Position numbers and translations under genes: made by a program
Shown: piece after piece, positions 23,829 through 26,386 of the stretch
Numbering within the stretch: position 1 is the first letter of the stretch
How the letters are laid out: every line of letters begins with the position of its first letter
The notes under the pieces: generated by a model
Seen by the model: the letters and a program-made list of their open reading frames with translations, nothing else
Database searches by the model: none
What the model was told of the DNA's origin: nothing
Source of the DNA: Campylobacterales bacterium
GTDB lineage: Bacteria; Campylobacterota; Campylobacteria; Campylobacterales; Sulfurovaceae
Direction of reading: 5' to 3'
Assembly (NCBI GenBank): GCA_014763885.1
Contig: JACXUO010000001.1
Location: 62 to 64,061 of the forward strand
Length of the DNA stretch: 64,000 bases

Positions 23829-24732
23829 CTATTTCACTTTCATCAAAATATTTTGCCAGATACGCCTGCATATCTCCAAAAAGCGGGGCGACAAACTCCA
23901 TCTTTTCTCCCGTTTCAGGATGTGTCAGATAGAGCAGATATGCATGCAGCTTCACCCGTGAAATTCTATCCCGTTTGCTCTTAAAGCCGTATAAATGATC
24001 CCCCAGTATATGCCGTCCCAATGTTGCCAGATGCACACGTATCTGGTGGGTACGTCCGGTGAAAAGCTTGGCAGCGATCAATTCTGTATCCACCCTGCTT
24101 TGCGCCAGTTTGACAAAGGCTGTTTTTGCCTCTTTGCCATGCGGTACGACATCCATCTTCAGACGGTTGTTCGGATTGCGTCCGATAGGCTTCTCTACAA
24201 CGGTATTTTCTTTGAGCGGATAGTCGATGAGGGCCAGGTAGTAGCGCCCCATGCTCTTATCCTGCAGCTGTTCGCTGAGCTTCTCATGGGTCTTGTTATC
24301 CTTGGCGATCACCAGCGCCCCGGTCGTCTCCTTGTCGATACGGTGCACGATCCCGTGACGCTCCTCTCCACTGATGGTGGAGAGCGATATCCCCCGCTGT
24401 ATCAGCCAGTCCACCAGGGTCGGCTCCTTGACCGAAGGTGCGGGGTGCACCACAAGACCTGCAGGTTTGTTGATAACCATCAGGTATTCATCCTCATAGA
24501 TCACTTCCACATCAAAGTCCACAGGCACTGCTTCACGTCTCTCCGCTTCTTTGAACTCATAAGTGATCTCATCCCCCTCTTCTACTTTGAAGCTGGGCTT
24601 ATTGATCGTCTTGCCGTTGACGGATACCAGTCCGTCCTTGATCAGTTTTTCGATCTGGTTACGGCTGACATCCAGCGCATTGGCTAATGTTTTGTCCAGG
24701 CGGTTTTTTTCTGTTACGCTAATTTTTTCCAC
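23779..24732 (-). CDS. rluD: RluA/RluD-family 23S rRNA pseudouridine synthase
   Basis: S4 domain RLDK; VINKPAGLVVHP; GIVHRIDKETTG; TGRTHQIRVH. Likely start is GTG 24732 (GGAG 6 nt upstream); the alternative ATG 24804 lies inside a REP copy. Confidence 0.9.
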   Translation of the reverse strand: MEKISVTEKNRLDKTLANALDVSRNQIEKLIKDGLVSVNGKTINKPSFKVEEGDEITYEFKEAERREAVPVDFDVEVIYEDEYLMVINKPAGLVVHPAPSVKEPTLVDWLIQRGISLSTISGEERHGIVHRIDKETTGALVIAKDNKTHEKLSEQLQDKSMGRYYLALIDYPLKENTVVEKPIGRNPNNRLKMDVVPHGKEAKTAFVKLAQSRVDTELIAAKLFTGRTHQIRVHLATLGRHILGDHLYGFKSKRDRISRVKLHAYLLYLTHPETGEKMEFVAPLFGDMQAYLAKYFDESEIDEKIDPRTLGDRFTGV

Positions 24733-24742
24733 TCTATACTCC

Positions 24743-24763
24743 GTAGGTTTGGCACTGCCAAAC
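24743..24763 (+). repeat. GTAG-family REP element, copy 1
   Basis: GTAG-GTTTGGCA-C-TGCCAAAC: tetranucleotide foot plus perfect 8-bp palindrome. Confidence 0.9.
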
Positions 24764-24789
24764 GTCCTTATCAATTCTTGATCTCTTTT

Positions 24790-24810
24790 GTTTATCCGTG
24801 CCATACCTAC
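24790..24810 (-). repeat. Degenerate REP copy 2, inverted relative to copy 1
   Basis: GTAGGTATGGCACGGATAAAC, 17/21 identical to the REP; contains the RAYT stop TAG and the ATG at 24804. Confidence 0.75.
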
Positions 24811-25328
24811 TCAAAATCAATACTCTCATCAAACACACCCCAATCATCATCATGATATCCGGCATCCATAAATTTGCCAAACGATGAATACTCCCACGCA
24901 GCAGCGCTAGGCGCAAACTTATGTTTTACGGGATTATAATGAATATAATTCAACCTTAGCTTATAATCTCTCTCATCCCGTATGGTATGCTCATAAAAAC
25001 GTTTTTGCCAGACAGGTTTATAGTGCTGCCCTTCTCTACTGTGGGATTGCATTAAATGCCGGTAATATTTCGGATCACAATGGGACGAGAAGTACCTTTT
25101 GATAGATCCAATGATTTTAGGATACTCCTTGACATCTTCAAACATCACTATCATATGGATATGATCAGGCAGTATAACGATGGCATCGATAGTGAATGAA
25201 AACTGACGTTTGACATGCGTGAAGCTTTCTCTTAAAAGCCCAATATTTTCGATCAATATCAGATTACGTTCATAGGTTACAAGGGTAAAAAAGTAGCTAT
25301 GTCCTTCTAAAAAAACTCTTCTATAATT
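24807..25328 (-). mobile_element. REP-associated tyrosine transposase (RAYT, HUH/Y1), probably start-disrupted
   Basis: NYRRVFLEGHSYFFTLVT...PDHIHMI (HUH)...WQKRFYEH.IRDERD...YIHYNPVKH...WEYSS; an in-frame TGA at 25331-25329 precedes the conserved N-terminus. Confidence 0.92.
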
Positions 25329-25348
25329 TCAAATGTAACCTTTTTACC

Positions 25349-25369
25349 GTAGGTTTGGCACTGCCAAAC
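25349..25369 (+). repeat. GTAG-family REP copy 3
   Basis: Identical to copy 1. Confidence 0.9.
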
Positions 25370-25460
25370 GTCACATAATACCCCGAACTGATTGAAATCG
25401 TTGTCTGCATGTCATTTGTAGGAAACACTTTATTCTCTTTATTTCATATTTCCCTGAGGC

Positions 25461-25481
25461 GTTTGGCAGTGCCAAACCTAC
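25461..25481 (-). repeat. GTAG-family REP copy 4, inverted relative to copy 3
   Basis: Exact reverse complement of copy 1; 91-bp spacer from copy 3. Confidence 0.9.
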
Positions 25482-25582
25482 AAACACTCACATCACTATA
25501 GTAGATAAATTATAACGGATTTTGTTTAGTAGTAAGCAACAAAGAAAAGGTAAGAATGTTGTACTATCAGCAGAAAAAGAGA

Positions 25583-26386
25583 CTAGCTCTCTTTTTCTAT
25601 ATCGTCTCTGTCCCAACGCTCCGGGTCAAGGAAGGTATCATCGTGGATATGCTTGAAGGAAGCCTTGATCATCTTGAAGATATCACTGTTTTTCTGTTCA
25701 AGCCCCGCAAGCCACTCTTTGGTAGCAGCTCTTGCATGTGGCATCTTTACATCTTTAAGCATCGCCGGACAGGCTTCATCACCGACCACCTGCAGGTTGT
25801 TGTCCATGGCAAACCCTCGCAGCTGCGACTCGCGTACCTGGATCAGCGGGCGGATCAGATGGAAGCCTTTGCCTGTCTTGTAGATCGGTGCGAGTGCTCT
25901 CATCGTACCGTTGTAGAACATATTCATAAAGAAGCTCTCAACGGTATCGTCGAAGTGATGTCCCAAAGCTACCTTGTTGAAACCGCCCTCCTGAGCAAAG
26001 CTGTAGAGCGCTCCCCTGCGCATACGTGAGAAGTAAGAACAGAAAGAGGAGTTCTCACGAATCGCATCCTGGCTGACATCGAAGATATTGGTATCATAGA
26101 CCGTATGTTTGATCCCGTACTTTGCACAGTGTGCAGAGAGAAAGTCGTAGTGCTCGTCAGGCATCCCATACTTCACGGTACACGCTTCAAACTCGAAATC
26201 AAACGGCGCATTGCGCTGCATATGCTTCAGTGCATGTATCAGCGAGAGGGAATCTTTTCCTCCGCTTAGTCCTACCAGTACCTTGTCCCCTTCGCCGATA
26301 AGTCTGAACTCGGCATTGGTCTTACCTATCACCTTGAGCAGTTTTTTGCTCATCGGTATGGTCGGAAATTCGTCTCTTCTACCCAA
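25583..26386 (-). CDS. ttcA: TtcA-family tRNA 2-thiolation / PP-loop ATPase
   Basis: GLSGGKDS, CSYFSRMRRG, ALGHHFDD, IRPL. Confidence 0.8.
   Translation of the reverse strand: MGRRDEFPTIPMSKKLLKVIGKTNAEFRLIGEGDKVLVGLSGGKDSLSLIHALKHMQRNAPFDFEFEACTVKYGMPDEHYDFLSAHCAKYGIKHTVYDTNIFDVSQDAIRENSSFCSYFSRMRRGALYSFAQEGGFNKVALGHHFDDTVESFFMNMFYNGTMRALAPIYKTGKGFHLIRPLIQVRESQLRGFAMDNNLQVVGDEACPAMLKDVKMPHARAATKEWLAGLEQKNSDIFKMIKASFKHIHDDTFLDPERWDRDDIEKES

Follow-up and report, generated by a model that had tools for sequence, protein, structure and literature searches.

A half-decayed REP doublet between a RAYT gene and an rluD-like gene in Sulfurovum, and a probable over-extension of the RluD gene call

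Organization of the ttcA-rluD locus

The stretch of DNA considered here, a 64-kb window of contig JACXUO010000001.1 from a Campylobacterales bacterium to which all coordinates refer, carries a gene for a pseudouridine synthase resembling RluD that is preceded by a gene for a REP-associated tyrosine transposase (RAYT), by repetitive extragenic palindromes (REPs) on both sides of the latter and, further upstream, by a gene resembling the tRNA thiolation gene ttcA; all of them are read on the minus strand (Table 1). The subject of this text is the pair of REPs that fills the gap between RAYT and rluD, together with the start codon of rluD. Taken as a whole, the following explanation is very probable. 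Positions 24743-24810 would be a REPtron's right-hand pair of REPs, the REPtron having come to lie in an originally tight ttcA-rluD junction. The REP proximal to RAYT would have decayed, its GTAG still giving the RAYT stop codon and an in-frame ATG having arisen by chance from one of its mutations; the distal REP would have stayed intact, and rluD would be translated from GTG 24732 by means of a GGAG whose GG is the usual REP flank. The ATG of the public annotation would then be an over-extended call.

The anatomy behind this explanation had been proposed in a first-pass annotation and was recovered to the base. The stop codon of RAYT (TAG 24809-24807) consists of the last three bases of the GTAG (24810-24807) of a degenerate REP. 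A T-to-A change at position 7 of the same REP gives ATG 24804-24802, which lies 2 nt past the RAYT stop, in frame with rluD, and is followed by no stop codon, the predicted product being 341 amino acids long with the N-terminus MARINKRDQELIRTFGSAKPTEYRVEKISV / MARINKRDQELIRTFGSAKPTEYR. The other candidate start, GTG 24732, has the Shine-Dalgarno (SD) sequence GGAG directly adjoining the intact REP hairpin, and two G of this GGAG belong to the semi-conserved flank of the REP (CCTAC-GG).

The product of the downstream gene contains S4 and PseudoU_synth_2 domains (RluA-type catalytic) and reaches 269 bits against the TIGR00005 subfamily, for which the cut-off is 192.7. Its best equivalog is RluD NF008385, matched at 205 bits, below the cut-off of 351, and on these profile scores the enzyme is best called RluD-like. 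A profile search likewise placed the ttcA-like gene below the cut-off of its best match (198.8 bits, cut-off 272).

Table 1. Features of the ttcA-rluD locus, with positions in the 64-kb window.
Feature	Position	Strand	Remarks
ttcA-like tRNA thiolation gene	25583..26386	-	upstream neighbour of rluD ancestrally; NF007972 best match
Candidate promoter TATAAT	25509..25514	-	inside conserved non-coding block between ttcA and REPtron; putative, for REPtron-rluD unit
Upstream REP doublet, REPIN-like	25349..25481	-	two intact inverted REPs (25481-25461, 25369-25349), 133 nt
RAYT	24807..25332	-	TTG 25332; frame open from 25328 to stop
Decayed REP	24790..24810	-	17/21 bases; inverted relative to intact REP; GTAG holds RAYT stop
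Doublet spacer	24764..24789	-	palindrome ATCAA-GAA-TTGAT; in-frame TTG 24774
Intact REP GTAGGTTTGGCACTGCCAAAC	24743..24763	+	GTAG, 7-bp stem, 3-nt loop; inverse REP (iREP) in rluD sense
Long hairpin of both REPs (RNA or single-stranded DNA)	24743..24810	-	18/21 arm positions paired
Shine-Dalgarno sequence GGAG	24739..24742	-	6 nt before GTG; directly adjoins intact REP
rluD-like gene, RluA-family pseudouridine synthase, 317 aa	23779..24732	-	start GTG 24732-24730

The REP family, its doublets and its transposase

The 16-nt core of the REP occurs three times in the window, against 0.55 copies expected, and all three copies flank RAYT. The full 21-mer GTAGGTTTGGCACTGCCAAAC is likewise exact at three sites in the window, each able to form a local hairpin of -8.5 kcal/mol, and in all three intact copies as well as in the decayed one GTAG stands directly 5' of the palindrome GTTTGGC-ACT-GCCAAAC. 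A 26-nt repeat that includes the flanking CC/GG is identical at both iREP copies of the window, and among 161 metagenome copies the flank has C at position -1 in 53% and at position -2 in 41%. Within the window the 21-mer is confined to the REPtron; it was also found on further contigs of the same sequencing runs, and in metagenomes the exact sequence was met at least 163 times, on 120 contigs. Judged by sequence, these repeats constitute a genuine family of GTAG-type REPs together with its RAYT, that is, a REPtron.

The transposase matches NF047646 over the full profile (151.3 bits, cut-off 80) and also PF01797 (Y1_Tnp), its translation displays the motifs HIH and YIHYNPV, and the gene is bracketed by cognate REP pairs on both sides. 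Its reading frame is not intact in the window strain: the alignment to NF047646 (profile positions 1-146) begins with the very first codon of that open frame, and TTG 25332 and the following AAA are separated from this frame by one extra T (25326/25325), which shifts the frame at codon 3, the conserved frame being closed on its 5' side by TGA 25331-25329. The extra T is present in the contigs of sequencing runs X1 and X4 and absent in X2, X6 and the related locus L004 (loci and sequencing runs are designated by L and X, respectively, throughout). RAYT is intact in the strains of X2 and X6, and L004 has a different lesion, a 1-nt deletion in a run of T about 13 codons into the gene. The ratio of nonsynonymous to synonymous substitution rates (dN/dS) between window and L004 is 0.17 for RAYT, which implies that the frameshifts are recent or that they are assembly errors.

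There are 35 head-to-head doublets of this REP among the at least 163 metagenome copies listed, with lengths of 82-208 nt and classes at about 97-100 nt and at 134-136 nt (exact doublets among the matches listed, L081-L200). The upstream doublet of the window, of 133 nt, fits the larger class; its arms are 93% complementary and its predicted fold has -56.5 kcal/mol (z -7.4). The downstream doublet, of 68 nt, lies outside the size classes of the others. In both, the inverted REPs can be folded into one long hairpin, as in a REP doublet forming a hairpin (REPIN). The spacer of the downstream doublet (24764-24789) was found only in the window and in L004 when up to 6 mismatches were allowed in about 1 Mb of loci, so that the doublet does not recur as a unit; it is a relic and not a recently copied REPIN.

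That the RAYT-proximal arm of this relic is a real, degenerate REP, as the first-pass annotation had it, is well supported: 24810-24790 agrees with the REP at 17 of 21 bases and no other stretch of the 64 kb matches as well, if the three intact copies with their palindromic reverse-strand matches are disregarded. A control with 20 shuffled windows gave a single match with no more than 4 mismatches, or about 0.05 per window. L004 possesses a decayed copy in the same place, which differs from that of the window at 6/21 positions and does not contain the ATG; it has decayed independently.

The position of the intact REP immediately before a gene is not peculiar to rluD. Among the 163 metagenome copies listed, a long open reading frame (ORF) starts within 40 nt after CTAC in 32, and in about 10 the start comes no more than 12 nt past CTAC; in several of these the purine-rich flank of the REP furnishes a GGAG or GGGAG (e.g., CCTACGGAGGTATAATG and CCTACGGGAGTAGAGTATG). 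A TAG derived from GTAG closes a frame of at least 100 codons in 10 of the 163 listed copies. Since SD sequences from the REP flank and nearby ORF starts recur in this way, the rluD arrangement is one ordinary instance of a pattern of the family.

The start of rluD

The position of the start codon was addressed by comparison with 134 retrieved relatives. Exactly 317 amino acids, the length obtained from GTG 24732, are found in 97 of them, and in 107 of the 134 a motif R[LI]D[KRQ] begins 10 residues after the initiator. The GTG form of the window protein, VEKISVTEKN-RLDK, has this motif at residue 11; in the ATG form its index is 34, the largest value in the set. The extension is absent from all 134 relatives. 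In the protein collection the 341-aa sequence is represented only by the NCBI record of this very contig, and of the 27 further members of its 90% cluster none exceeds 319 residues, most having 317.

The nucleotide sequences of close relatives point to the same codon. A start codon is present at the position of GTG 24732 as GTG in L003, L004 and L072 and as ATG in L001 and L002, and the sequence 5' of it in L001, L003 and L072 is unrelated to that of the window. The RNA sequencing runs X16 and X23 contained only relatives of about 90% identity that are without the REPtron, and in the related transcript contig of X23 an ATG occupies the place of GTG 24732. L004, a Sulfurovum-like metagenome-assembled genome (MAG) whose RluD is 88% identical, is the nearest relative in which REP, spacer and SD sequence are the same. 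Upstream of its GTG the rluD frame reads stop-VVLVW-stop-NKRDQELIRTFGSAKPTEYR (the last part beginning NKRDQ), without any ATG and with a TGA in frame 19 codons upstream, and the residues read from the repeat are thus not kept in frame in the one orthologue that carries it.

The GGAG before GTG 24732 is predicted to form an anti-SD duplex of -6.1 kcal/mol at canonical spacing. Before ATG 24804 the match (-5.5 kcal/mol) extends to the codon itself, with no usable spacing left. Moreover, 44% of random 72-nt frames in the window are free of stop codons, so that the open frame before rluD is within what is expected by chance. A third candidate, TTG 24774, which is in frame and is the sole upstream start codon in L004, was set aside: its anti-SD match is weak (-2.9 kcal/mol) and homologue lengths do not support it.

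Several points weigh against a start at GTG 24732. In the local fold the probability of being unpaired is 0.17-0.18 for the GTG codon vs 0.34 for the ATG codon (0.76 for the SD sequence), a calculation that is not decisive, as it does not clearly separate the two starts. The ATG 2 nt after the RAYT stop has a geometry that permits termination-reinitiation. ATG 24804 and its open frame are unchanged in four sampled populations (X1/X4, X2, X6 and X13); these differ by no more than about 1% here, and the retained ATG for this reason says little either way (from runs X8, X10, X12 and X13 a single further contig, nearly identical, was obtained). Finally, the GTG start is placed by homology and sequence only. 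In view of the agreement among the relatives, rluD almost certainly starts at GTG 24732, the publicly annotated 341-aa form most likely results from a gene call that was extended too far, and ATG 24804 is most likely a by-product of REP decay.

History of the ttcA-rluD junction

In the Sulfurovum loci L015, L017, L020, L026, L032, L035 and L036, ttcA lies 0-36 nt before rluD, and a RAYT between the two genes is found only in the closest clade (L001, L003, L004 and L072). By this synteny, a REPtron appears to have been inserted into an ancestral, tight ttcA-rluD junction in one clade of Sulfurovum. Two types of RAYT and REP occupy the site. Type A is shared by the window and L004; type B is found in L001 (437-955) and L072 (3375-3902), with a RAYT that is 61-65% identical, a TAA stop and the REP GTAG-GGTGGAT-GTA-ATCCACC. 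L003 (3696-3899) is a mosaic in which a deletion extends from an upstream type-A REP into mid-RAYT and a type-B REP follows downstream.

The upstream REPIN (25349-25481) is inverted in L004 (3248-3387), where 116/140 positions are identical after reverse-complementing vs 93/150 in the same orientation, as might result from a flip through recombination between the inverted REPs. Still further upstream, L004 carries one more REP doublet. In another Sulfurovum (L012:3885-3975) a different REP doublet, GTAGGGTGCGTAAACACGCACC followed by its inverted copy, occupies the gap between ttcA and rluD, about 25 nt upstream of the rluD ATG, with no RAYT; this separate doublet makes the junction a recurrent landing place of REPs. 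The exact REP-SD-GTG junction of the window gave no match in the JGI metagenomes.

Two further observations concern the edges of the insertion. In the strain of X6 the REPtron and the first ~10 codons of rluD (24704-25600) differ from the window by about 1%, and rluD below 24703 (24609-24703) is about 13% different (12 changes in 95 nt), pointing either to a chimeric contig or to recombination with a breakpoint at the 5' end of rluD. At the other edge, a perfect 10-bp A/T-rich inverted repeat, GAAAAAGAGA-GCTAG-TCTCTTTTTC (25573-25597, minus strand), encloses the ttcA stop TAG 25585-25583. The repeat, which L001 shares, may serve as a hairpin for processing or as a weak terminator; its G-C pairs were too few for a call by the terminator scan.

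Transcription and the predicted REP-REP hairpin

As DNA, the REPs would be the hairpin substrates of RAYT. As RNA, the two REPs of the downstream doublet would pair with each other across the whole RAYT-rluD gap, with the ribosome-binding site of rluD just outside the 3' foot of the structure. In the rluD sense the predicted hairpin (24810-24743) has -25.3 kcal/mol (z -6.4); ATG 24804 lies in its stem, and GGAG and GTG 24732 lie just 3' of it, outside. The same fold is predicted in L004 (-21.2 kcal/mol, z -4.6).

No terminator-like site was found by the terminator scan in 24600-25700, 24500-25700 matched nothing in Rfam, and visual inspection of the 75-nt gap between RAYT and rluD revealed no TAnnnT (-10-like) hexamer. 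With neither a terminator nor a -10-like hexamer in the gap, rluD is most likely transcribed by read-through, the source of which is likely, from the sequence, to be either a TATAAT-containing block upstream of the REPtron or ttcA. This non-coding block, TTGCTTACTACTAAAyAAAATCCGTTATAATTTATC (25487-25536, minus strand), lies between ttcA and the REPtron and is invariant in the window, L004, L003 and L001, its flanks being divergent; the sigma-70 scan did not call the TATAAT because there is no -35 element. The hairpin would thus be an intercistronic structure within a longer message, and both the read-through and any effect of the hairpin on rluD are what we infer from this layout. A promoter-like site in the 3' end of RAYT (24880-24852) was discarded, as the number of such sites in the region equals the shuffle expectation. 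A site in the spacer resembling that of integration host factor (IHF), considered by analogy with the bacterial interspersed mosaic elements (BIMEs) of E. coli that contain such sites (RIP), was rejected as well, ATCAAGAATTGAT being out of register, by eye, with the consensus WATCAANNNNTTR.

The segment 24787-24738, which comprises the spacer, the intact REP and the SD sequence, is 98% identical between window and L004 and is the best-conserved 50 nt of the shared locus of about 9 kb, in which coding windows are ~70-94% identical and dS is 0.65-0.67. The conservation of its REP half is a matter of family constraint. The spacer (24764-24789) differs from L004 at 1 position, vs only about 80% identity for the spacer of the upstream REPIN, and, as this spacer is locus-specific, membership in the REP family does not account for its conservation. 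The decayed arm differs between the two lineages at 6/21 positions, yet both keep 18/21 pairs. Four of the nine inferred changes in the arm are C-to-U opposite G, by which pairing is kept only in RNA of the rluD sense; these wobble changes were not retained as proof of an RNA structure, 4/9 changes in two lineages being not significant. Together, conservation and pairing hint, at the level of sequence, at an RNA-level constraint on the rluD leader.

It is accordingly conceivable, if tentative, that the doublet has been co-opted as a cis-acting leader RNA of rluD that protects the message from 5'-to-3' or endonucleolytic decay or sets the rate of initiation; such a role is compatible with the relic and the GTG start described above. 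It would explain why the 50 nt stand out from the whole locus, why a locus-unique spacer is preserved and why pairing persists in a diverging arm, and the about 10 of 163 listed REP copies that lie no more than 12 nt before a long ORF and lend it their flank as SD sequence are in keeping with it. The comparison comprises two lineages only, however, and by our own estimate the enrichment of wobble changes has a binomial P of ~0.05-0.25. The REP half would be conserved anyway as a member of its family, a short import by recombination would look alike, and relatives manage without the element. In E. coli, moreover, REPs stabilise upstream rather than downstream mRNA.

Rather less likely is a role mainly on the message of RAYT, for which the hairpin would be a barrier to 3' exonucleases, or would stall terminating ribosomes, or both, so that RAYT is kept low and rluD is a bystander. 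The hairpin does start at the G before the TAG, and such an effect is reported to need a REP within ~15 nt of a stop codon. Stops supplied by GTAG recur at the end of long frames in the metagenome copies as given above (10/163 listed copies, frames of at least 100 codons), and REPs are described as raising mRNA stability and as implicated in the regulation of translation (Liang, Rudd & Deutscher 2015, cited in PMC6006769). Yet RAYT is already frameshifted in the window strain, and the RAYTs of the type-B loci L001, L003 and L072 end in TAA with no REP over the stop, which means that the arrangement is not required for RAYT.

The in-frame ATG and the unlikely reading of a REP-encoded N-terminus

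The first-pass annotation had offered two alternatives for rluD, a repeat-derived N-terminal extension coupled to the translation of RAYT and a start at GTG 24732 next to the REP hairpin. The anatomy of the second, with its GGAG, has held, and the role in rluD mRNA stability or initiation that it gives the hairpin would find its sole support in the unusual conservation, between two lineages, of the 50 nt ahead of the start codon; the extension has not been borne out by the comparison with relatives, which mostly have 317 residues and of which L001, L003, L072 and the X23 transcript have their start at the GTG position. For the extension to exist, ATG 24804 would have to be used, alone or together with GTG 24732, by re-initiation after the RAYT stop TAG, giving a 341-aa RluD with a 24-residue tail encoded by the REPs. 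An open frame with an ATG 2 nt past a stop could serve such a coupling, a terminating ribosome would melt the base of the hairpin, the ATG occurs in all sampled close strains, and N-terminal segments encoded by REPs or by Rickettsia palindromic elements (RPEs) are expressed in Rickettsia according to PMC3733652. Nevertheless the extension is very unlikely, as conservation is lacking (in L004 a TGA interrupts the frame and the ATG is missing, and no other relative is extended), the ATG is buried in a stem of -25 kcal/mol and is without a properly spaced SD sequence, and about 44% of 72-nt frames are open by chance. In addition, with RAYT frameshifted at codon 3, few ribosomes should reach the TAG to re-initiate.

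A related idea, that a decaying REP here newly yields coding sequence in the form of a minor RluD isoform with the 24-residue tail, at a level tied to the translation of RAYT, seems slightly more improbable still; all close strains sampled, also the ones whose RAYT is intact, have the ATG and the open frame. The weakest reading, which can be practically dismissed, is that the degenerate REP is a chance resemblance and that a single REP lies downstream of RAYT: the 4/21 mismatches and a doublet length of 68 nt, shorter than the metagenome minimum of 82 nt, would suit it, but a match with at most 4 mismatches is expected only ~0.05 times per window, the copy is inverted as expected for a doublet, L004 carries an independently decayed copy at the same place, and the two arms fold with z -6.4.

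Significance and comparison with known systems

The main value of the preferred reading, a relic doublet followed by rluD from GTG 24732, is a correction: 24 residues of the public 341-aa RluD are most likely not protein. The same trap, be it an in-frame REP at the start of a gene or a GTAG read as a stop, will recur where REP families abound. REPtron evolution within a conserved operon junction can moreover be followed here in a compact natural series: two RAYT/REP types at one site, a RAYT with a frameshift, a REPIN in inverted orientation and a mosaic with a deletion. Should function underlie the conserved 50 nt, a REP relic would have been co-opted as the leader of a housekeeping gene.

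The closest parallel is with the REPs of Di Nocera et al. 2013 (PMC3733652), in which GTAG stands 5' of a short perfect palindrome and inverted dimers (REPIN/BIME) are formed, and which lie between co-directional genes, supply TAG to the upstream ORF and are misannotated into N-termini. According to that work, GTAG REPs often supply a TAG stop, most REPs annotated in N-termini are extragenic, as shown by shorter homologues, and GTAG REPs have already been reported in Sulfurovum sp. NBC37-1 (PMC3733652). Unlike those dimers, to which it is likened by description, the doublet studied here is half-decayed, shorter than copies that look active and flush with the SD sequence of the next gene.

The whole element resembles known REPtrons in its HuH-Y1 RAYT, in the inverted pairs of cognate REPs and in the probable dispersal of REPs elsewhere in the genome (Nunvar 2010; Bertels & Rainey 2011, PMC3116915; Corneloup et al. 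2021, PMC8266576), and the architecture of the REP (GTAG, 7-bp stem, 3-nt loop) resembles that of the group-3 S. maltophilia REP (PMC8266576). RAYT occupies a fixed chromosomal site across related species, as do vertically inherited RAYTs (PMC5581495). In contrast to typical REPtrons, the RAYT frame is broken at codon 3 in the window strain, two RAYT/REP types of 61-65% identity occur at one site in sister species, and L003 is a deletion mosaic.

With regard to RNA, the REP hairpin begins at the stop codon and lies in an intercistronic gap, as in the REP effects on mRNA, namely 3' stabilisation and the attenuation of translation near stop codons (Liang et al. 2015, cited in PMC6006769). Those effects are known from E. 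coli, for the gene upstream, whereas any effect on rluD would fall on the initiation region of a downstream gene. In concept, a palindromic repeat read in frame as an N-terminal peptide is also reminiscent of RPEs. RPE-decorated proteins, however, have been shown to be expressed (as cited in PMC3733652), whereas the extension considered here is absent from relatives and interrupted by a stop codon in L004, and the rluD locus is for this reason not to be classed with RPE-type segments. REPtrons, stops supplied by GTAG and the misannotation of REPs into N-termini are thus already in the literature, and the locus described here is a new instance of them in a Sulfurovum MAG from a hot-spring metagenome.

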